A DNA stretch of 60,001 nt from Patescibacteria group bacterium (GCA_016926555.1 JAFGOI010000013.1:110802-170802), one strand, 5' to 3'; positions 1 through 10,183 are shown, counted from the stretch's first letter. The notes: generated by a model from the sequence alone, not told the origin. Made by a program: numbers and translations.

Positions 1-2
1 TT

Positions 3-803
3 GGTGTCGTGAGAGTCTATTCAACTATTGGACAGCCCAACTGGCTTGCTCAATATTTAGTGATGGTACTGCCGATTCTTGTGTATGAGTATCTTGGCGG
101 AAAAAAAAGGATGAACCTGTGGCTGTTTACTTATTTAATGAGCTATTTGTGTTTGTGGTTCACGTATTCTCTGTCGGGTTTGATTGGTTTTGCAGTGTCA
201 TCTCTAGTTTTGGTTGTTCTTTTTTATAAAGATCTAGATAAGGAGAAAATTAATAGACTGGCAATGTTAGGTGTGATTACTGTGGCAGTTTCACTGCTGT
301 TTCCGGGGATTTTTAAAGATAAACTCATTGACATTAATCAGGATGTATCTAAGTTAAGGTTTAGTTTTGTTCCACATGTGTATGCGTTGGGAGATGGCAA
401 TAAGGTATCAGACCCGGGGTATATCCGGTTTGGATTATGGCGGGGTTCGCTGGATGTTATACGGTCGTCTTTTAAGGTTTTTAGCATAGGTTCAGGATTA
501 GGTACTTTTCCGTATGTGTTTCAGGATTACAGGCCACTGAGTTTGAATTACTCTTCAGAATGGGATTTTGTTTTTAATAAACCGCATAACTATTATTTGG
601 AACTCTGGATTGAAACCGGGATTGTAGGTTTGCTGGCATATTTAATTTTTCTATTTGGTTTGTTTAAAAGAGTTCCCAAACCGTTTATACCTGTGTTAAT
701 GGCTTTTGTTGTAACTAACTTTTTTGGCTGGCCGACTGTGGTAACAAACGTTTTGTTTTGGGTTCTGGTTGCGCCATTAGGATATGAAAGAGACAAAAAG
801 TAG
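3..803 (+). CDS. O-antigen ligase (Wzy_C/WaaL-like) family membrane protein, 5'-partial
   Basis: STIGQPNWLAQYL and KPHNYYLELWIETGIVGL motifs; multiple TM segments; frame is open from the window edge. Confidence 0.85.
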   Translation, partial: GVVRVYSTIGQPNWLAQYLVMVLPILVYEYLGGKKRMNLWLFTYLMSYLCLWFTYSLSGLIGFAVSSLVLVVLFYKDLDKEKINRLAMLGVITVAVSLLFPGIFKDKLIDINQDVSKLRFSFVPHVYALGDGNKVSDPGYIRFGLWRGSLDVIRSSFKVFSIGSGLGTFPYVFQDYRPLSLNYSSEWDFVFNKPHNYYLELWIETGIVGLLAYLIFLFGLFKRVPKPFIPVLMAFVVTNFFGWPTVVTNVLFWVLVAPLGYERDKK

Positions 804-1404
804 ATTAGTAAACAGTATTAAATATACCGGTTTTTTTGGAATAATTGTAGTTTTGTTTATCTATTTGCAGATGCTATTTAGGATTTATTATGCGGATGTG
901 TGTTTTGAGAATGCTGTCAGATCAATAGATAGGGGGGAATATGATATCGCGGTTGTGTATGTGAACCAAGCCATCAAAAGCAATTCGGAAGAGCCGAATT
1001 ATCTTAGATTGAAGGCCAAAGCACTTATTCTAATTTCTACGGACGCAACTGGGGATGAATCATATGAGTATAAAACTGTGGCGCTAGATTCTCTTAGAAA
1101 GGCGTATGAATTAAATCCCAATAATCTGGTTACGATAAGAAATTCTGTGCCGTTGTACTATTATCTGTCTGTTCATGACTACTCACTTCCTCCTAGTGTT
1201 GATAATTTAGATGATAGGTTTATCAGGTATGCCGCTGATTTCTTTGAGACTGTGAAAGAGAGATATTCTCATGATGTAGGTGTCATAACTCTTATAGCCA
1301 AATATGAAAATAGATTAGGTTTATATGAAGAGTACAATGACAGTGTTTCCTTGGTGGAGAAGCTTCGCCCGGACCTCCTGGACTGGCATACGAACTTTAA
1401 TTGA
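784..1404 (+). CDS. Membrane-anchored TPR-like protein, possibly the split C-terminus of the O-antigen ligase
   Basis: N-terminal TM helix then helical repeats (YDIAVVYVNQAIKSNSEEPNY, AYELNPNN); overlaps upstream gene by 20 nt. Confidence 0.6.
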   Translation: MKETKSRLVNSIKYTGFFGIIVVLFIYLQMLFRIYYADVCFENAVRSIDRGEYDIAVVYVNQAIKSNSEEPNYLRLKAKALILISTDATGDESYEYKTVALDSLRKAYELNPNNLVTIRNSVPLYYYLSVHDYSLPPSVDNLDDRFIRYAADFFETVKERYSHDVGVITLIAKYENRLGLYEEYNDSVSLVEKLRPDLLDWHTNFN

Positions 1405-2586
1405 TTATTCCGATATGTCGACATAAGTTTTGTATACCCACCCCTGTGTGTTTTCGTCTATTTTTATTTTGACCCACTCTTGTGCCTCTTCAATAAGTGC
1501 ATAAGTACTCCCTACGTTAACTGTAGTAACTTCAGCGCCCGAAAGGCTGGGTGTATCGCGAACTCTTAACCATCCTGTTGCGGTTGGTTTTATGGTTACG
1601 TTTTTCCCGGCGGAAATCTCGGCTCCCATTATGGTTTCTAAAGCTTGTTTTGCTTCCGGTGTAAGGCCTTCGCCATCGGCTTTTCTTCCAAGATAGGCTC
1701 CCTTTGCGGAACCAGAAGCTATACTTAGAACAGTCTCGTTGGATACGAGAACTCCTTCTTGATCATATATATTGCCTCTATAATCCAGGAAGTAGTCGAA
1801 AAGAAGTTCTTTACTCACACCTATTCCTTTCAAATCAATTCCTCTTGTCCTGTTCCAGTGGACTACCGCCTTAGCCCAGGTTTGAGTGTCTACTACGATT
1901 AGCGGATTGTCGGAGGACAGCTCGTAAAGGTTCGGGGAATCTTCAAACGAACTTACCTTCGCGGGAACTGGCGCCGGAAAAAGCTTAACTGTAATATTTA
2001 GTGTGTATCCTGACTTAACGTTGATTCTGGCTTCTTGTGATTCAAAACCCTCCTCTTCAATTCTTAGGTCATAGTCTCCTTCCGTTAAATTATTTGCCAA
2101 AAAGGGAGTTTTTCCGACCTCATTTCCATCTATATAAACCGAAGCTCCGGAGGGCTCCGAAACTATCCGAAGGATGTTGTTTGAACTGTCTTCCTCAAAC
2201 CAAAATTCGTTTCCCGCTGAAAAATAATCCGAAACTCCTAAATCTCTATTTATTCCCACATGGTGAAGATATGTGTTTGTGTTAGGCAGAAAGGTTAAAG
2301 ATGTTTGGTATGATCTGTTTTCGTGTTTAATTTCTATAGTGTTTTCTCCGGGGGTAATTTCTTGAGATCTGTACGGAGTGTTGCCCACCATTTCTCCATT
2401 GATGTAAACCTCTCCCGATCCATATCCAGACTCTATGTTAACACTAGATTTTCCTTTAAGATTGCCTAAATTACGGAGGATCTCGCCCCCGAAATAAACT
2501 ATAAGTCCAACACCTACTATTCCCAGCACGTACACAACTGGAGTCGGCAAGCCTTTTTTCTTGTTTTGAAGAGTAGAAATAGACAT
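1405..2586 (-). CDS. PEGA-domain protein with C-terminal bacterial SH3 domain
   Basis: N-terminal TM; two PEGA-like units (GEVYINGEMVGNTP, SEPSGASVYIDGNEVGKTP); SH3_3-like tail (WLRVRDTPSLSG...WVKI...GWV). Confidence 0.85.
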   Translation of the reverse strand: MSISTLQNKKKGLPTPVVYVLGIVGVGLIVYFGGEILRNLGNLKGKSSVNIESGYGSGEVYINGEMVGNTPYRSQEITPGENTIEIKHENRSYQTSLTFLPNTNTYLHHVGINRDLGVSDYFSAGNEFWFEEDSSNNILRIVSEPSGASVYIDGNEVGKTPFLANNLTEGDYDLRIEEEGFESQEARINVKSGYTLNITVKLFPAPVPAKVSSFEDSPNLYELSSDNPLIVVDTQTWAKAVVHWNRTRGIDLKGIGVSKELLFDYFLDYRGNIYDQEGVLVSNETVLSIASGSAKGAYLGRKADGEGLTPEAKQALETIMGAEISAGKNVTIKPTATGWLRVRDTPSLSGAEVTTVNVGSTYALIEEAQEWVKIKIDENTQGWVYKTYVDISE

Positions 2587-2680
2587 TTATATATTCGGAT
2601 TTGGGCAGTCCACCTGCTACTTAAATTATCATGTTAATGTTAAAATATCAATGCTAAATTGAAGTTTGCATACTTTTTTT

Positions 2681-2755
2681 GGCCCGGTAGCCAAGTGGTA
2701 AGGCGGAGGTCTGCAAAACCTCTATGCGCGGGTTCGATTCCCACCCGGGCCTCCA
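2681..2755 (+). tRNA. tRNA-Cys(GCA)
   Basis: Acceptor stem GGCCCGG/CCGGGCC; anticodon arm GAGGT-CTGCAAA-ACCTC; TTCGATT T-loop; encoded CCA; one C-A mismatch in the T stem. Confidence 0.96.
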
Positions 2756-2816
2756 TAAATTGGCCGTGATCCAAAGGACCGCGGGAAATTTATGGAATGC
2801 GGGAATCGAATACTTT

Positions 2817-4709
2817 ATGAAGACACAAGAACTAGTACAAAAATACATATCATTCTTTGAAGAAAAGGGACATAAACAACTCCCTAATGTATCTTTGGTA
2901 CCCGAAGGAGATTCGACACTTTTGTTTGTTAACTCGGGAATGTTTCCGCTGGTACCTTATTTAATGGGAGAAAAACACCCGCTTGGAACCCGTTTAGTAA
3001 ACATACAAAGGTCGGTAAGATTTGAAGATTTAGGAGAGATAGGAGACCCAAGACACACTATAGCGTTTCACATGATGGGAAATTGGAGTTTAGGAGATTA
3101 TTTCAAAAAAGAGCAGTTAAACTGGTTTTATGAATTCTTAATAGAAAGCTTAGGTCTGGATCCGCAAAAAATATATCCATCTGTTTTTACCGGAGATGAA
3201 GATGCCCCAAAAGATAGAGAATCAATAGAAATATTAAAAGAGATATTTTCCCGTTACGGGATTGAAGCAAAACTTGGTGAGAGGATATTTGAATATGGTA
3301 AGAAGTCAAACTGGTGGCAAAGAGGAGATGCTGTTGGAGAATTAGGTGGCCCGGACAGCGAAGCTTTTTATTATATCGGCGAAGAAGGAAAACCGGAATC
3401 AGATCCAGAAGGCGATGAGGGCAACTTTTTGGAAATTGGCAATTCGGTGTTTCTTCAATACAAAAAAACTGAGAATGGCTGGGAAGAACTCCCTCAGAAA
3501 AACGTAGACTTTGGTGGGGGCTTAGAAAGAATGGCGATGGTTCTACAAAACAAAAAAGATATTTTCGAGACGGACAATTTCTGGCCAATTATAGAAAAAA
3601 TACAGGAGATTTCAGGCAAAGACTATTATGAAAGCGAAGAAGTCAAAAAGAGCATGAGAATAATAGCGGACCATAGTAGAGCGTGTGTGTTTTTGGCAAT
3701 GGATGGGGTTTCACCCAGCAAGAAAGAGCGGGGTTATGTTTTAAGGAGGTTGCTAAGGAGAATTGTTAGACTTAGCCGGCTACTTGGTATCCAAGGGGAT
3801 ATTTCAGTAGAGCTTGTGGGTACTGTATGCGAAATGTTTAGATGGTTATATTCGGATCTTCCTAGTAAAAGGGGGGAGATAGAGGCTCTTTTCAAAGATG
3901 AGGAGAGAAGAGCTAAGAATTTATTGGCACGTGTGAGTAAAAAGGTTAGGCCATTTACGGAAAAACCAGAAAAGGAACAGATGGCAATAATATTCGAAAA
4001 TGGTAACGAATTAGTACAATCGGGATTTGTATCTGCTGAAATAATGTCAGCAGGTTGGGCAAAATTGGGATTTGATTTTCATCAGTCAGATGGCTATGCT
4101 TTAGAAGATTTTTTTGAAGATTTAGAGATTGCAAAAAAAACTAAAAGTTTAGATGTAGATATTCCTGAAGTGTGCCGAATAGCATATAAATTGGATGAAG
4201 AACATAAACAAAAATCTCGCGAGGGTGCTGAACAAAAATTCAAAGGAGGCCTTGCAGACCAAAGCGAACAAGTAGTCAAATACCACACAGCAACACATTT
4301 GTTGCAGGAAGCGTTACGAAGAGTGTTAGGAGACCACGTTAGACAAATAGGCAGCAACATTACAGGTGAGAGACTTAGATTTGATTTCGCTCATGACAAG
4401 AAATTAACCCAAGACGAATTAGAAAGAGTAACCGAACTTGTAAATTCAACAATTAAAAAGGGTCTGCCGGTTAAATTTGAAATACTCCCAAAAGAAGAAG
4501 CACAAAAAATAGGAGCATTGTATTTAGAAAATGAACAATACCCCGAAACCGTGAAGGTTTATTACACAGGCGAATCACTTGAGGATGCCTTTTCAAAAGA
4601 GTTTTGCGGCGGGCCGCATGTGGAGAATACGGCAGAGCTTGAGCCCCTTGAGCTGTATAAGCAGGAGAGGATTGGGGAGGGGAAGTTGAGGGTTTACGGG
4701 AGGTTTTAG
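2817..4709 (+). CDS. alaS: Alanine--tRNA ligase, short form (catalytic plus editing domains, no C-Ala domain)
   Basis: LLFVNSGM, FHMMGNWSLGDYFK, VDFGGGLER, IADHSRA, HTATHLL and EFCGGPHV motifs; start moved to ATG 2817 because the ORF-track start lies inside the tRNA. Confidence 0.95.
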   Translation: MKTQELVQKYISFFEEKGHKQLPNVSLVPEGDSTLLFVNSGMFPLVPYLMGEKHPLGTRLVNIQRSVRFEDLGEIGDPRHTIAFHMMGNWSLGDYFKKEQLNWFYEFLIESLGLDPQKIYPSVFTGDEDAPKDRESIEILKEIFSRYGIEAKLGERIFEYGKKSNWWQRGDAVGELGGPDSEAFYYIGEEGKPESDPEGDEGNFLEIGNSVFLQYKKTENGWEELPQKNVDFGGGLERMAMVLQNKKDIFETDNFWPIIEKIQEISGKDYYESEEVKKSMRIIADHSRACVFLAMDGVSPSKKERGYVLRRLLRRIVRLSRLLGIQGDISVELVGTVCEMFRWLYSDLPSKRGEIEALFKDEERRAKNLLARVSKKVRPFTEKPEKEQMAIIFENGNELVQSGFVSAEIMSAGWAKLGFDFHQSDGYALEDFFEDLEIAKKTKSLDVDIPEVCRIAYKLDEEHKQKSREGAEQKFKGGLADQSEQVVKYHTATHLLQEALRRVLGDHVRQIGSNITGERLRFDFAHDKKLTQDELERVTELVNSTIKKGLPVKFEILPKEEAQKIGALYLENEQYPETVKVYYTGESLEDAFSKEFCGGPHVENTAELEPLELYKQERIGEGKLRVYGRF

Positions 4710-4809
4710 GTTGGTTTGAGTTTGTATCCGAGTATACCCTAATGAAATAGGAGTATATGTTCGTGGATATAGTATAATCGACGCGAGAATTCCTTAAGGA
4801 AGTACTAAA

Positions 4810-5730
4810 ATGAGCGATAACCTGTGGGATATTACAGATAAACCTCATACGAAAACGAAGCTTGAGATATTGCACAAAGTTTTTGACGTTTGGCTAACCA
4901 TATGGAACGCCCCTAAGCAAAACTGGGTTTCAAAAGAGTGGTATGTGATAGATCTTTTTGCCGGCAGAGGTTTGTACACACGCAATAGGGAGCTTGTCAG
5001 TGGATCTCCGCTTATTTTTTTGGAGGAGATTTTGAAAAAAGCGGATAAGTTGATTGAAAACACTATTAAACTGAAGCTATTTTATGTTGAGTGTGATAAC
5101 CAAAATTACGAAGGATTAGTAGATAATGTAAACATGTACATTGAGAAGCATCCTAAATTGAGGGATGTAGCCACGATCCTTTTTTACAAAGATGACTGTA
5201 ACAAGATAATCGATAAAATTATTCCTGAGATGAAAAACAATACAAAAAATCCGATGTTTGTTTTTATAGATCCCTATGGATTGCACATTAATAAGCTAAC
5301 AATTGAGAAACTTGCCAATATGAAAAATCCCAAAGATATAATACTTAACTATATGCTAGAGGGTGTTAGGAGAGTTTGGGGGGTAGCTAGCAAAAAGGTT
5401 CGTAAAAAGAAGCTTTCTGTCACAGAGATGAGCACTATAAAAAAGTTTGAAGATTATTTCGGGTCTGAAGTGGAAGATATACCACCGGGGGATTTGGATA
5501 TGTTGAAGTATTACTGTAGAACGTTAACAGAAGAAGGTCTTAGGGTTGTACGATACGAAATGCGCCACCCGATAATTAACGATTCATTGTATTACTTGCT
5601 GTTTGCAGCCAAGAACGCCAATATTACAGGTATAGTTAGAAAGATATACTTAAGGGAGAGGAAAAATGATTCGGGACAAAGTCCTTTACCTGGGTTCGAT
5701 CCAATAGTTACACTTATTCCCAATGGGTAG
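4810..5730 (+). CDS. tcmP: Three-Cys-motif partner protein (TcmP; Rossmann methyltransferase-like)
   Basis: PHTKTKLEIL, YVIDLFAGRG, SGSP and FVFIDPYG motifs; adjacent radical SAM gene. Confidence 0.8.
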   Translation: MSDNLWDITDKPHTKTKLEILHKVFDVWLTIWNAPKQNWVSKEWYVIDLFAGRGLYTRNRELVSGSPLIFLEEILKKADKLIENTIKLKLFYVECDNQNYEGLVDNVNMYIEKHPKLRDVATILFYKDDCNKIIDKIIPEMKNNTKNPMFVFIDPYGLHINKLTIEKLANMKNPKDIILNYMLEGVRRVWGVASKKVRKKKLSVTEMSTIKKFEDYFGSEVEDIPPGDLDMLKYYCRTLTEEGLRVVRYEMRHPIINDSLYYLLFAAKNANITGIVRKIYLRERKNDSGQSPLPGFDPIVTLIPNG

Positions 5731-5775
5731 GGTTATATTTTCGGGTATTGTTTGGTATAGTATATATACAGAATC

Positions 5776-6654
5776 ATGACGACGTTTAGTCAAAAAAGAT
5801 TCTTTATGAATAAAAATATTGGTTCGATAAAAAGAAAAACACTCCTATACAAATCAAAGGTAGATTACGGAGGTTGGACTATAAATCACATTGTTGGATG
5901 TACACACGGCTGCCGATTTCCCTGTTATGCGTTTATGATGGCTAAAAGGTTTGGGTGGGTTAAAGATTACAATGACTGGAGAACTCCCAAACTAGTTTCT
6001 AATGCCCTTGAGTTATTAGAGAAAGAATTGGAAAATCTCAAAGAGGAGGTATCCGTCGTTCACTTGTGTTTCATGACTGATCCCTTTATGTACGATGATA
6101 CGAAAAACATCTTGATACCGGAGGTAAAGGAAATGACATTGAAAATTATTAAGAAGCTGAATGACGAGGGAATTCGTGTGACGACACTTACGAAGGGATT
6201 ATATCCGGAAGAAATATTAGAGTCTCCTTATTCTATCGATAATGAGTATGGGATTACGTTAGTATCTTTGAATAATGCGTTTAAGGAACGATTTGAGCCA
6301 TTTTCATCTTCCTATGATGAGAGGTTACTTTCACTGAAAAGACTTTCCGACGTAGGTAGAAAAACATGGATTAGTATGGAGCCTTATCCAACACCTAATA
6401 TTGATGCAACGGCGGAAAATATTGAGTACCTGCTCGATAAAATATCTTTTGTAGATAAGATTATTTTTGGAAAGCTTAATTACAATGTCGGTTCCTCAAA
6501 ATATTCAGGTAATGATGTTTTTTATAGAACTGTTGCTGGAAAGATAGTTGACTTTTGTGATGCTCGTGATATTCAGTATCATATAAAAACGGGAACCCCA
6601 TTGAGTGAAAAAAGCACCGTAAAAATTCTCCAACATGTTGGTGTGAATAAGTAA
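5776..6654 (+). CDS. Radical SAM protein, SplB/DUF5131-like
   Basis: INHIVGCTHGCRFPCYA three-Cys motif (CxxxCxxxC); FMTDPF, TLTKG and WISMEP motifs. Confidence 0.85.
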   Translation: MTTFSQKRFFMNKNIGSIKRKTLLYKSKVDYGGWTINHIVGCTHGCRFPCYAFMMAKRFGWVKDYNDWRTPKLVSNALELLEKELENLKEEVSVVHLCFMTDPFMYDDTKNILIPEVKEMTLKIIKKLNDEGIRVTTLTKGLYPEEILESPYSIDNEYGITLVSLNNAFKERFEPFSSSYDERLLSLKRLSDVGRKTWISMEPYPTPNIDATAENIEYLLDKISFVDKIIFGKLNYNVGSSKYSGNDVFYRTVAGKIVDFCDARDIQYHIKTGTPLSEKSTVKILQHVGVNK

Positions 6655-7162
6655 GAAAACAGTGTTGATAACAGTAATCTCATCTTCTTTCTCAAAGGAG
6701 TTTTCGATGTGCGGTTGGAGAGTTGGTTATTCTTATCTGCCGGATGAGCTTTATAACGATATGTTTCATCTCCAGCGCTCATTTAATAGCGTGGCAGCCG
6801 CTATTTCGCAAAAAGCAGCAGAGATTAGTCTTAAAAACCCTGTTGTGAAAGAGAAAGTAAAGGAAGAGATAGAAAGAATTAGAAAAACCAGAGATTATGT
6901 AGTGGATAAAGTTAGAAATATGGGGAGCGGGTTATCGTGTTTTATGCCGGAAGCGTGCCCATACTTGTATGTAAAGTATCAAAGGGACATCTCAAGTTAC
7001 GATTTGTGCGAGGATATTATTTTAAAATGTAGCGTTGTGGTATCTCCCGGAAGAGGTAATGGGAGTATTGGTGAGGGACATTTTTGTATCACTTACGCAG
7101 ATTCTATAGATGTTGTAAAAGAGGGTATGAAACGACTCGAGGAATATTTCAAGACTAATTAG
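6647..7162 (+). pseudogene. C-terminal fragment of a class I/II PLP aminotransferase
   Basis: Begins at the SFSK PLP-lysine motif (SFSKEFSMCGWRVGY); N-terminal half missing; conserved Arg of RISYA appears as CITYA. Confidence 0.8.
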
Positions 7163-7258
7163 GTTTATAGATTTTTATTCTTGTGTAGATTGAACATGAA
7201 AGTATCTTATGCGATGTAAAACCCAAACAAAACACGAAAAATATAGTAAAATAAACTC

Positions 7259-8227
7259 ATGAACCTCAAAAAGATCAAAACCATACAAATCACACCCGCA
7301 ACACCATTTGATTTCGATTCCACATTCCATAAACCCGATCATTTCACATCAGGTGACAATGAATGGGAACCTGGTATTCGCTGGCAGACATGGAATTGGG
7401 AGGGCATAAATTTAGGTCTAAAGTTCATAAACAAGGGTGAAGTTAACTCACCCAAAATAGACGTAGAAGTGTATTCCAAAGAGGATTTAGATGCCCGTTT
7501 TATTAAATCTCTTACAGAAGAAATTAAATACAGATACAACTTGGAGCTTGATCTAAAAGACTTCTACAAAACATTCAAAACCGACAAAGTGCTCAGTCCT
7601 ATTATTAAAAAGTGGAAGGGCATGAGGCCGGGCCACCCCAGTTCGCTTTATGAATATCTGATCATCGGAATAGTTCTCCAAAACGCTACAGTCAAAAGAT
7701 CTGTTCAGATGTTTACGGCTCTTCTTGAAAATTACGGAACACTGCTTAAATTTAACGGGAAAAAACTCTGGTGCTTTTGGGAACCCGGTGGTCTTAAAAA
7801 TGTAACCGAAGAAGATTTGCGCGCTTTAAAGGTTGGATATAGAGCAAAATCAATAAAAAGAATAGATGACCAATTCGTAAACGGAATACTCAGCGAAGCT
7901 GAACTTAGGAAAAAAGACAGGGAAACCCAGATGAAAGAACTATTGAGTCTTTATGGTGTTGGTCCCGCTACAGTTTGGTATCTGCTTTTTGATGTCTTTC
8001 ATCATTGGGACTTTTTTAATCACGTTTCGCCTTGGGAGCAGAAGATTTATTCAAAGTTATTTTTTGATCAGGATCCGGAAAACCCTGTGCCTGTCGAAAA
8101 ACTCCTGAAGCATTTTGAAAAGTATGGTAAGTACAAGCAGTTGGCTGTTCACTACATTTGGGAGGATTTGTGGTGGAAGAGAAAAAATGAGCATATTCCC
8201 TGGCTTGAGAAGTTGATTAGGATTTAG
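7259..8227 (+). CDS. HhH-GPD superfamily DNA glycosylase-like protein (AlkA/OGG-like)
   Basis: YEYLIIGIVLQN, LKVGYRAK and LLSLYGVGPAT (HhH) motifs. Confidence 0.8.
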   Translation: MNLKKIKTIQITPATPFDFDSTFHKPDHFTSGDNEWEPGIRWQTWNWEGINLGLKFINKGEVNSPKIDVEVYSKEDLDARFIKSLTEEIKYRYNLELDLKDFYKTFKTDKVLSPIIKKWKGMRPGHPSSLYEYLIIGIVLQNATVKRSVQMFTALLENYGTLLKFNGKKLWCFWEPGGLKNVTEEDLRALKVGYRAKSIKRIDDQFVNGILSEAELRKKDRETQMKELLSLYGVGPATVWYLLFDVFHHWDFFNHVSPWEQKIYSKLFFDQDPENPVPVEKLLKHFEKYGKYKQLAVHYIWEDLWWKRKNEHIPWLEKLIRI

Positions 8228-8309
8228 ATCGATTAGCTATACTATTGATTTGCTATTGATTTGCCTAACTCCCTACTCATTCCCAATAACCTTCTGCTAA
8301 AATATTGAT

Positions 8310-9290
8310 ATGCCCAATGAGGAAAATCCTATCAGAGATATGCCACGGACTTCTCCTGAAGAACCAGTAAGGACAATACGTCCCGAAAGGGGCAGAATAG
8401 CGGAGGCGGCGCTTAATCTGGTGGAAAGACCAAACGAAGGTGCATTAGTACTAGAACAGACCTTAGGACTATCCTTCGGAGACGAAAAACCCCGTGAAGT
8501 AGTGGTTAATAAAAGGGGAGCGGTTTTATTAGCCCTTACCCAATCCCAAAGGCACTTACTTGGCCCAAATCTGTTGCGCACCATGACAGGCGGGGCGGGA
8601 GCCTATGTACCCGAACTAGATCTTGTAATAATAAATGAAGCCGTAAGTGGATCAATCTCAGCGTCTTTACACGAGAATGCTCATGCTTGGACATCGAGAC
8701 AAGAAGGAAAATTAAATGAGGCCCTTTCGGAGCATCGCCGTCTTAAACACCTTCTGCAAATGGATGAAGATACAGAAGAGCTTTCCGTAAATACAGGTGC
8801 TGCGTATATGTGTGTACAGGAGGGTATGGCCGACTGGATAAGAATAAATGCTCGTAGGCGGATAGATACCGGGCCAGAGGAGGAAAACAGGGAACACAGA
8901 AAATATGCTAAATGGGACATGCTAAAACTGTTGACTTCTAATCCCGATAAACAGCCGGAGTGGAGTTGGGAAATACCGGAGGGTCGTGTGGAGCAAAATG
9001 CACGAGAATCATACGAGGTTATTAAGCGGGGATTAGAAGAAGCGCAAGAAATGGCGCAAAGAGGGTCTGTGCAAGCACTTCAGGGATTTCTGGGCTATAT
9101 TCAAAGATGTCAGCCGTTTCTATACCCTTTAGGATATACGTATGTACATATGTATATGGAAAAAGCTGCGGAGCAAGGTATTAATATTGAAGAAGCTTTA
9201 AAAGCAATAATTCAGAATCCTCCGGAAACGCTGGAAGAAATCATAGAATATATTGATCCTAAAAGTAAGGAGGACACACGAGCCGATTAG
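8310..9290 (+). CDS. Hypothetical protein with zincin-like HExxH motif
   Basis: LHENAHAW followed by QEGMADW. Confidence 0.5.
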   Translation: MPNEENPIRDMPRTSPEEPVRTIRPERGRIAEAALNLVERPNEGALVLEQTLGLSFGDEKPREVVVNKRGAVLLALTQSQRHLLGPNLLRTMTGGAGAYVPELDLVIINEAVSGSISASLHENAHAWTSRQEGKLNEALSEHRRLKHLLQMDEDTEELSVNTGAAYMCVQEGMADWIRINARRRIDTGPEEENREHRKYAKWDMLKLLTSNPDKQPEWSWEIPEGRVEQNARESYEVIKRGLEEAQEMAQRGSVQALQGFLGYIQRCQPFLYPLGYTYVHMYMEKAAEQGINIEEALKAIIQNPPETLEEIIEYIDPKSKEDTRAD

Positions 9291-9313: not shown

Positions 9314-10183
9314 TTACTTGGAGGCACGTGACACCGTTTTGAAGGACAGAACATCGTTTATATTCAGACCTAAATGTGCAGCTGCGTTGTTTCTGACCAT
9401 AGCGAGATCCACCATACCCGGCGGGGAGGTACTTGGATAAAGTACAAAAGAATCTGTGTCGTGACTCATCATCCTATCATTGATATATTTGGCTTCTGCG
9501 ATACATTTATTCTTTAGGTATACCTCAATATGAGCTCCAATCTTGCTGGTTAGAGCTCCGTATATCTTCACGTTGCCATAATTATCTATATGAACTATCT
9601 CCCCGTTTTTAATATTTAATGGAACAATTTTATCCTTGCTGATATTGTCTCCAAACTTTTTGTAGTCAACATCTAATGCTAGTGCGGTCGCTATTGCCCC
9701 ATAAATTACGTGTGCGCTAAAAGTTTTGTAGGCTGGATTAGTGTTGAGTATTTTTTCGATATCTTTGGGAGGATTTTGCCCAGGGAGGTAGATAATTTTA
9801 CCATCAACAATAAATGGGTATAACTTTTTGACCCGAATAAGGTATTCGAATTCAAAGTCGTTTGCAAGCCAACCAAAAATACCATTGTTAGAACCGATAT
9901 AAATAATGTCTCTGTCTTTGAGTTTACAAATCAGATCGTCTTTAAATATCGGGTGCGGGGCGACATTAGTAAATATTACTGCAGGGCAAGAGAAATGTTT
10001 GGTTAAAAGTCTTGTAATAAACGCACCATGTGTAATAGACAACTCTTTAACGGAGGCTAGAGGAGCAATGTCTATCAGTTTTTTAGACATACTTTGAGCG
10101 ATAGATTGCATGACGGCGTACATCTCGTTGTAGCTTACATCAGAGATATCGGATATTACTTGTATTATTCTGTGAGTTTTCAT
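9314..10183 (-). CDS. SAM hydroxide adenosyltransferase / chlorinase / fluorinase family (DUF62), divergent
   Basis: N-terminal ISD, YIGSNNGIF, HIDNYGNV, and C-terminal NAAAHLGL..D motifs. Confidence 0.75.
   Translation of the reverse strand: MKTHRIIQVISDISDVSYNEMYAVMQSIAQSMSKKLIDIAPLASVKELSITHGAFITRLLTKHFSCPAVIFTNVAPHPIFKDDLICKLKDRDIIYIGSNNGIFGWLANDFEFEYLIRVKKLYPFIVDGKIIYLPGQNPPKDIEKILNTNPAYKTFSAHVIYGAIATALALDVDYKKFGDNISKDKIVPLNIKNGEIVHIDNYGNVKIYGALTSKIGAHIEVYLKNKCIAEAKYINDRMMSHDTDSFVLYPSTSPPGMVDLAMVRNNAAAHLGLNINDVLSFKTVSRASK

Follow-up and report, generated by a model that had tools for sequence, protein, structure and literature searches.

The region downstream of alaS in a Patescibacteria group bacterium was analyzed in a 60,001-nt stretch of DNA (GCA_016926555.1, JAFGOI010000013.1:110802-170802; hereafter the window, G000:C5:110802-170802), which belongs to an assembly of 872 kb that is 92% complete. 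Positions 4810-8227 carry, in this order, a gene for a TcmP-like protein, a gene for a radical S-adenosylmethionine (SAM) enzyme, an aminotransferase remnant and a gene for a helix-hairpin-helix (HhH) protein of the HhH-GPD type. We consider it likely that these genes represent two unrelated accessory units, the TcmP and radical-SAM pair (the cassette) and the HhH protein, and that their adjacency is coincidental. A sequence-only reading of this DNA had suggested that the three proteins could form a base-modification and reader/repair unit. Such a three-gene module is not supported: the pair and the HhH gene were associated in 0 of 80 radical-SAM neighbourhoods and 0 of 80 HhH neighbourhoods, no other of 401 phylum genomes carried both, and the two units are separated by a pseudogene.

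Linkage was analyzed from both sides. Within 7 kb of the radical-SAM gene in the 80 loci (829 kb), no HhH-family member was detected by tblastn or with a hidden Markov model (HMM) of the HhH clade, and a broad AlkA/Ogg-like HMM detected no relative at E-values up to 1. Reciprocally, the 80 metagenomic HhH loci (548 kb, within 6 kb) contained neither TcmP nor the radical-SAM enzyme with its Cx3Cx3C motif, and four more HhH contexts inspected by hand contained no radical-SAM gene. The HhH clade was found in 16 and TcmP in three of 401 genomes from the phylum; both were present only in the window genome, the other 15 HhH-positive genomes having no TcmP and the other two TcmP-positive genomes no HhH gene. 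None of the window genes recurred beside HhH homologues except the HhH gene itself. These counts make it very improbable that TcmP and the radical-SAM enzyme write a DNA base modification that the neighbouring HhH protein reads, protects or removes within one defensive module. The genes are indeed co-oriented, the HhH gene starting 605 bp past the radical-SAM stop on the same strand; all of them are accessory and somewhat poorer in GC than their flanks, and one distant HhH domain of the same type forms a fusion with a radical-SAM enzyme of another kind that depends on B12, which makes a partnership between HhH and radical-SAM proteins conceivable. However, the fused B12 enzyme belongs to another radical-SAM class and lies in a biosynthetic-looking cluster, the genes that recur beside members of the HhH clade are different ones, and the fragment separating the genes in the window is a dead aminotransferase. 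The role of the HhH protein as the reader/repair part of a unit was thus given up, while the features from which it had been derived stood: a TcmP-like methyltransferase fold, a radical-SAM protein with CxxxCxxxC instead of CxxxCxxC, and an HhH-GPD protein 0.6 kb further on.

By contrast with the HhH gene, TcmP does form a true pair with the radical-SAM enzyme, because the two were fused or directly adjacent in 64 of 80 loci. Relatives of the radical-SAM enzyme were gathered by a pattern consisting of HGCxFPCYA and a second conserved peptide, with one genome per species; this two-peptide scan retrieved 559 relatives, the best 80 of which originated from Proteobacteria, Planctomycetota, Actinomycetota, many Patescibacteria, DPANN archaea, Methanosarcinales and Asgard archaea and were 53-68% identical to the window protein (49% at one locus). 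TcmP was called in these loci with domain-specific HMMs. It was found in the same reading frame as the radical-SAM enzyme, i.e. as a fusion, in 24 loci, directly upstream in 40 and nearby in two; it was absent from seven, and in the remaining seven the contig had no room for it, so that, of the 73 loci long enough to show a TcmP beside the radical-SAM enzyme, 66 did. Fusion proteins of ~500 aa are also present in the protein database. In the window, the partner begins 46-76 nt past TcmP, depending on its start codon. The two subunits differ in conservation: at the more distant loci the radical-SAM proteins were 53-59% identical and the partner TcmPs 15-30%, a contrast that, as judged from sequence comparison, would fit a constant catalytic subunit associated with a diversifying targeting subunit.

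The TcmP protein matched TIGR04474 with 135.2 bits (cut-off 53; E 3.8e-39) over profile positions 1-259 of 263, and the PADLOC models PDC-M30A and PDC-M41A with 98.5 and 51.7 bits, respectively. Searches of the PDB with the single TcmP sequence or with a profile revealed no relative. An AlphaFold2 (AF2) model built with 35 homologues as input reached a predicted local distance difference test score (pLDDT) of 90.9, and its best Foldseek match was RlmJ (7p9i, E 2.6e-8), the DUF519 protein 2oo3 also being near. The nearest solved fold is thus that of Escherichia coli RlmJ, a DUF519 protein that is the N6-methyltransferase of 23S rRNA A2030; in both proteins a Rossmann methyltransferase core carries a helical insertion, and motif I and the DP motif are conserved in each, with a template modelling (TM) score of only ~0.5 and 10-12% identity. 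Across the 35 TcmP sequences, with identities down to 15%, D48, F50, G52 and G54 were invariant, as were D154 and P155, which we take to resemble the DPPY-type motif of amino-methyltransferases. Unlike RlmJ, TcmP is mobile and is paired or fused with a radical-SAM enzyme, and its methyl transfer is only predicted.

The radical-SAM protein passed PF04055 (45.5 bits, cut-off 29.5, residues 36-208). Gene callers place its start at 5806 and the database copy has 282 aa; 5806 is likely the true start. Its three predicted cluster-binding cysteines are spaced as C42-x3-C46-x3-C50 (GCxHGCxFPCYA), an arrangement unchanged in 23 bacterial and archaeal homologues, and no canonical CxxxCxxC [4Fe-4S] motif is present in the protein. 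PDB searches with the single sequence or with a profile again revealed no relative. The nearest NCBIfam families were Rv2578c NF038135 (42.7 bits, cut-off 430, E 3.4e-11) and PA0069 NF033668 (31.1 bits, cut-off 360, E 1.2e-7), and database sources label its relatives 'DNA repair photolyase'. The SPL and COG1533 'DNA repair photolyase' families consist, like the window enzyme, of small single-domain radical-SAM proteins, and SPL acts on DNA. The window enzyme reaches about one tenth of the family cut-offs, has Cx3Cx3C instead of Cx3Cx2C and differs from these families by an obligatory methyltransferase-like partner; at this level its kinship to them appears as a distant resemblance only. A phage origin of the subfamily was considered and is unsupported: although a PHROG family does match, the phage database search yielded only two unannotated metagenomic 'Bacteriophage sp.' contigs carrying the radical-SAM enzyme.

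The neighbours of the pair link it to restriction-modification (RM) genes. An Eco57I/MmeI-type RM enzyme was present in 14 of the 80 radical-SAM loci and ended where TcmP begins in at least nine of them; other recurrent neighbours were SNF2 and ResIII helicases, HsdS, an N6/N4 methylase and the YhcG nuclease, and the closest homologue (70% identity) comes after a type III Mod-Res pair. Two arrangements illustrate these contexts. A conserved operon at L017, L020 and L029 (~1-7850) contains an SNF2 helicase, the Eco57I/MmeI-type RM enzyme and a TcmP-radical-SAM fusion, and an operon at L185:205-6846 contains type III Mod-Res, TcmP and the radical-SAM enzyme. The pair formed by TIGR04474 and PF07505 (DUF5131, 'phage Gp37/Gp68') likewise has TcmP directly upstream of a three-cysteine radical-SAM-like partner, and both this pair and the PDC-M30 and PDC-M41 types are likewise mobile and tied to defence islands and RM genes. 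Unlike the partner in that pair, the window partner lies outside DUF5131 (16.7 bits against a threshold of 28.9, over its N-terminal 80 residues only) and resembles Radical_SAM/COG1533 proteins, its Cx3Cx3C being invariant; its family is often fused to TcmP, and the window copy is solitary. The matches of the PADLOC B-components to it were weak (20.6 and 18.5 bits) and confined to the region of the Cys motif. The pair is probably a further member of this catalogued but uncharacterised candidate system, in the form of a non-DUF5131 Cx3Cx3C variant. The sequence-only reading had stated that TcmP and DUF5131/SplB-like radical-SAM genes co-occur, are mobile and have no known function. Co-occurrence in a wide range of taxa and mobility were both borne out, with a partner that is SplB-like and falls below the DUF5131 threshold; as to function, PADLOC lists the pair type only as candidate defence systems (PDC-M30 and PDC-M41) that are themselves unvalidated, and literature searches on TcmP, DUF5131 and PDC-M30 yielded incidental annotations only and no biochemistry of the pair.

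In the mechanism that we propose, TcmP and the radical-SAM enzyme would work as one enzyme, as expected for proteins that form one polypeptide in many genomes. The fast-evolving TcmP would select and present a nucleotide within a nucleic acid, most likely DNA, and the near-invariant radical-SAM subunit would then perform radical chemistry on the presented nucleotide, the pair acting as an accessory of RM-type defence. It is distinctly unlikely that the pair instead modifies RNA (rRNA or tRNA) or a small molecule and is unrelated to defence. The nearest structures to TcmP, those of an rRNA m6A methyltransferase and of 2oo3, would fit such a role, as would the position of the window cassette by alaS and near tRNA-Cys, where RM genes are missing; elsewhere, though, the pair lies repeatedly within or abutting RM and helicase-nuclease operons, it matches PADLOC candidate models, and its extreme mobility and variable partner suit conflict systems better than housekeeping RNA modification.

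In the lineage of the window the cassette was recently acquired, because TcmP is present in one of the 41 closest genomes (the window genome only) and in three of the 401 genomes of the phylum, and because the GC content of the cassette (35-37%) is below that of its flanks (39-40% for alaS and 44% for the orphan open reading frame (ORF) located beyond the HhH gene). The radical-SAM gene, too, was present in none of these close relatives other than the window genome. A search for an empty site or for shared synteny recovered none.

The HhH protein has a full three-domain AlkA/Ogg1 fold over its whole length (AF2 model, pLDDT 96). Foldseek retrieved MBOgg1 4ejy, CacOgg 3f0z and AfAlkA 2jhj, with TM scores of 0.72-0.80, and also EcAlkA 3ogd. 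With AlkA of E. coli and A. fulgidus and with CacOgg and MBOgg1 it shares the N-terminal beta domain, two helical lobes and the HhH hairpin (TM 0.65-0.80), and it resembles AlkA in having no lyase Lys; it differs from all of them by a Ser in place of the catalytic Asp, with a conserved Glu three residues later, and by scores far under the family cut-offs (66.5 bits with Ogg1 TIGR00588, cut-off 397.85; 15.7 bits with AlkA NF007641, cut-off 229). With PF00730 it reached 22 bits for a cut-off of 26.2, which Asp-type relatives from its family pass, P0279 for example with 52.4 bits. More than 2900 homologues sharing words with the protein were found, the top 120 all being 73-79% identical, and the stretch LYGVGPATVWYLLFDVFHHWDFFNH(I/V)SPWEQKIYSKLFF is essentially invariant.

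The clade to which this protein belongs was found in 4 of 41 close relatives and in ~4% of the phylum genomes, scattered across many Patescibacteria families with 71-78% identity. It is probably mobile and appears to spread horizontally, because its distribution is patchy over many families yet its members are ~75% identical. Recurrent neighbours among the 80 HhH loci were a DUF5680 protein (18 loci), cytidine/dCMP deaminases (17), glyoxalase/bleomycin-resistance proteins (12), large serine recombinases (11), RarA (7) and NUDIX proteins (6), contexts that would correspond to variable damage-control islets, often on integrative elements. The commonest neighbour is a 282-aa protein with a C-terminal DUF5680, which usually abuts the HhH gene, as at L131:5132-5977 directly upstream; it is missing from the window. 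Two fusions involve relatives of the protein. At L102:5001-7307 (also L103:962-3268), a 768-aa protein consists of a B12-binding radical-SAM enzyme fused to an SPWE-type HhH domain that is 41% identical to the window protein and has the motif ISPWELK. The L102 cluster contains four further radical-SAM genes, a class II aminoacyl-tRNA-synthetase-like gene at its start, an SDR, an epimerase and PHP and Condensation domains; this cluster could be biosynthetic and carry its own self-resistance glycosylase. At L104:343-2196, a 617-aa fusion joins an Asp-type HhH relative to a class II (Asp/Lys/Asn-type) aminoacyl-tRNA-synthetase-like domain.

The active site was compared with that of Clostridium acetobutylicum Ogg (3f10), which carries a K-to-Q mutation. 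In the alignment, A237 of GVGPAT occupies the position of the lyase Lys and S257 of HVSPWE that of the catalytic Asp, in agreement with the sequence-only reading, which had noted an apparently replaced Asp (NHVSPWE) and no visible Lys. The GVG hairpin is conserved, and the conserved N142 aligns with the Asn plug position of Ogg enzymes, in which this residue plugs the gap in the DNA (PMC3397491). A HMMER scan of representatives clustered at 50% identity yielded 1411 HhH relatives. The distant relatives keep (L/I)-D-x-W-(S/N), whereas the clade of the window protein reads (S/P/A/G)-x-W-(E/D). Among the representatives, 62 had an acidic residue three positions downstream (i+3) and no Asp, 24 had the Asp and no i+3 acid, six had neither and one had both; the Ogg Lys position was occupied by A, Y or Q, and by Lys in no member. 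In a maximum-likelihood tree the i+3-acid sequences formed one clade (support 100/99) nested among Asp-type sequences, and the i+3 acid was retained in 27 of 28 deep lineages of the clade, the old Asp position drifting between S, P, A and G (R was also seen). According to this tree, the canonical Asp was lost once in the history of the clade, a Glu or Asp three residues on having been kept since. The view of a site simply deprived of its catalytic residue has to be amended accordingly, a carboxylate being retained three residues further on. In the model, helix 258-269 begins right after S257, and by these limits E260 would lie in the first turn of the helix, beside the old Asp site. The protein looks like a working glycosylase because of its full fold, its conserved GVG hairpin and Asn142 and the retained i+3 acid; its probable function is that of an accessory, monofunctional repair glycosylase with a predicted relocated carboxylate, and in our proposal it would act independently of the pair, using E260, and be carried in the variable islets described above.

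A binding-only function was weighed against this prediction. The sequence S-x-x-E is also that of a classical capping box of helices, which would give E260 a possible structural role, and this general pattern would fit a non-catalytic binder of lesions or abasic sites in which E260 only caps the helix. Such a pseudo-glycosylase has a precedent in Schizosaccharomyces pombe Mag2, an HhH-GPD protein that also lacks the canonical catalytic Asp, this residue being replaced by Ser. Mag2 is reported to bind DNA and abasic sites but to excise no base (cited in PMC4433238). The window protein lacks both the canonical Asp and the Lys. Compared with Mag2, its clade has a carboxylate one turn away and the N-terminal domain of AlkA/Ogg1 in addition, and its pocket region is under very strong purifying selection. 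From a capping box alone one would expect the opposite of what was observed, namely a constant N-cap, which here varies (S, P, A, G, R), and a free i+3 position, which here is kept acidic. The extreme conservation over the active-site region also argues against a Mag2-like protein, although all these features would still be compatible with a binding-only role. Overall we regard a non-catalytic protein as fairly unlikely. A bolder form of the glycosylase reading remains tentative and is less likely than not: the SPWE proteins would be an undescribed active HhH-GPD class in which the general-base carboxylate migrated by one helical turn, from an Asp at the N-cap to a Glu at N3, and which passes by horizontal transfer between ultra-small bacteria, where it would serve as an accessory resistance gene against one specific genotoxic adduct. 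The fusion to the B12-radical-SAM enzyme would then be a self-resistance glycosylase, comparable to those of the AlkZ/YtkR2 type but on an HhH fold.

Several points weigh against the account of two coincidentally adjacent units and against the roles assigned to them. The 80 radical-SAM loci and the 80 HhH loci are the best-scoring relatives and not a random sample, and TIGR04474 and our own HMMs may overlook very divergent TcmPs. All four genes between 4810 and 8227 are patchy in or absent from relatives, so that they could have arrived together as one shared islet, and a local, genome-specific interaction is conceivable. In this genome the cassette is not accompanied by RM genes. DNA as the target of the pair is suggested by its neighbours and by the distant SPL/COG1533 resemblance only, and RlmJ, the structural neighbour of TcmP, methylates rRNA. 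For the HhH protein, the shift from Asp to Glu is a single event, so that the mutual exclusivity of the two residues does not amount to many independent replicates.

The sequence lying between the two units, on which the sequence-only reading is silent, is an aminotransferase pseudogene that abuts the 3' end of the cassette. Its PF00155 match covers positions 212-350 of 361; it keeps the pyridoxal-phosphate Lys motif (SFSK) and is devoid of the N-terminal 200 residues. In a search of the whole genome, the only aminotransferase piece was this one (positions 204-349), the match reading through the radical-SAM TGA stop; the remnant is the sole class I/II aminotransferase sequence of the assembly. 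No orthologue above 28% identity was found in 40 relatives, and no aminotransferase counterpart lies beside other cassettes. Either the incoming cassette or a subsequent deletion would have removed the 5' 60% of the gene. Since every gene at 4810-8227 is accessory, the spot downstream of alaS may be a variable one that collected unrelated acquired genes. When direct repeats, inverted repeats and att-like sites were sought in the flanks (around 4500-8400), only short matches at chance level were found.

The coordinates of the locus are collected in the table. The tRNA-Cys gene runs into the 5' end (2724-2816) of the longest alaS reading frame, the first ~31 codons of which (MRGFDSHPGL...) are tRNA sequence and not protein, and alaS probably starts near 2817. 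Two similar A/T-rich boxes precede the start codons of TcmP (4767-4789, ATATAGTATAAT) and of the HhH gene (7241-7263, ATATAGTAAAAT); they may be separate -10-like promoter elements, which would fit independent transcription of the HhH gene. A promoter and terminator scan of the locus showed no excess over shuffled expectation. The orphan ORF has no match in Pfam, NCBIfam, PADLOC or PHROGs. Beyond it, on the opposite strand (9314-10183, -), lies a divergent homologue of the SAM hydroxide adenosyltransferase (DUF62), both Pfam domains of which are marginal (27.5 and 19.4 bits).

Table. Features of the locus downstream of alaS (positions in the window)
Feature	Position	Strand	Description or basis
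tRNA-Cys(GCA)	2681-2755	+	
alaS	~2817-4709	+	
TcmP	4810-5730	+	306 aa; TIGR04474; RlmJ-like Rossmann methyltransferase fold
TcmP motif I, SAM-binding loop (D48-L-F50-A-G52-R-G54)	4951-4971	+	column conservation
TcmP motif IV-like D154-P155 (FIDPYG)	5269-5274	+	column conservation
SPL/COG1533-like radical-SAM enzyme	5776 or 5806-6654	+	PF04055
Cx3Cx3C cluster motif, C42/C46/C50 of GCTHGCRFPCYA	5899-5925	+	invariant among homologues
Class I/II aminotransferase remnant, 166 codons, C-terminal 40%	6644-7162	+	PF00155
Stand-alone AlkA/Ogg1-fold HhH-GPD protein, 'SPWE' clade	7259-8227	+	AF2 and Foldseek
HhH hairpin G233-V-G235-P-A237 to S257-P-W-E260	7955-8038	+	alignment to 3f10
326-aa orphan ORF	8310-9290	+	no family match

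Combined, these results indicate that the modification-plus-reader module should be dropped and that loci with a fused pair or with RM operons are better places than the window to study the pair. The SPL-like Cx3Cx3C partner of TcmP belongs to a very widespread, uncharacterised two-component enzyme of bacteria and archaea, often present as a single polypeptide, and whatever chemistry it performs on nucleic acids would be new. In turn, the HhH clade is under unusually strong selection yet is carried by ~4% of Patescibacteria genomes, and it offers a clean natural experiment in the relocation of a catalytic residue within the best-studied DNA-glycosylase superfamily.

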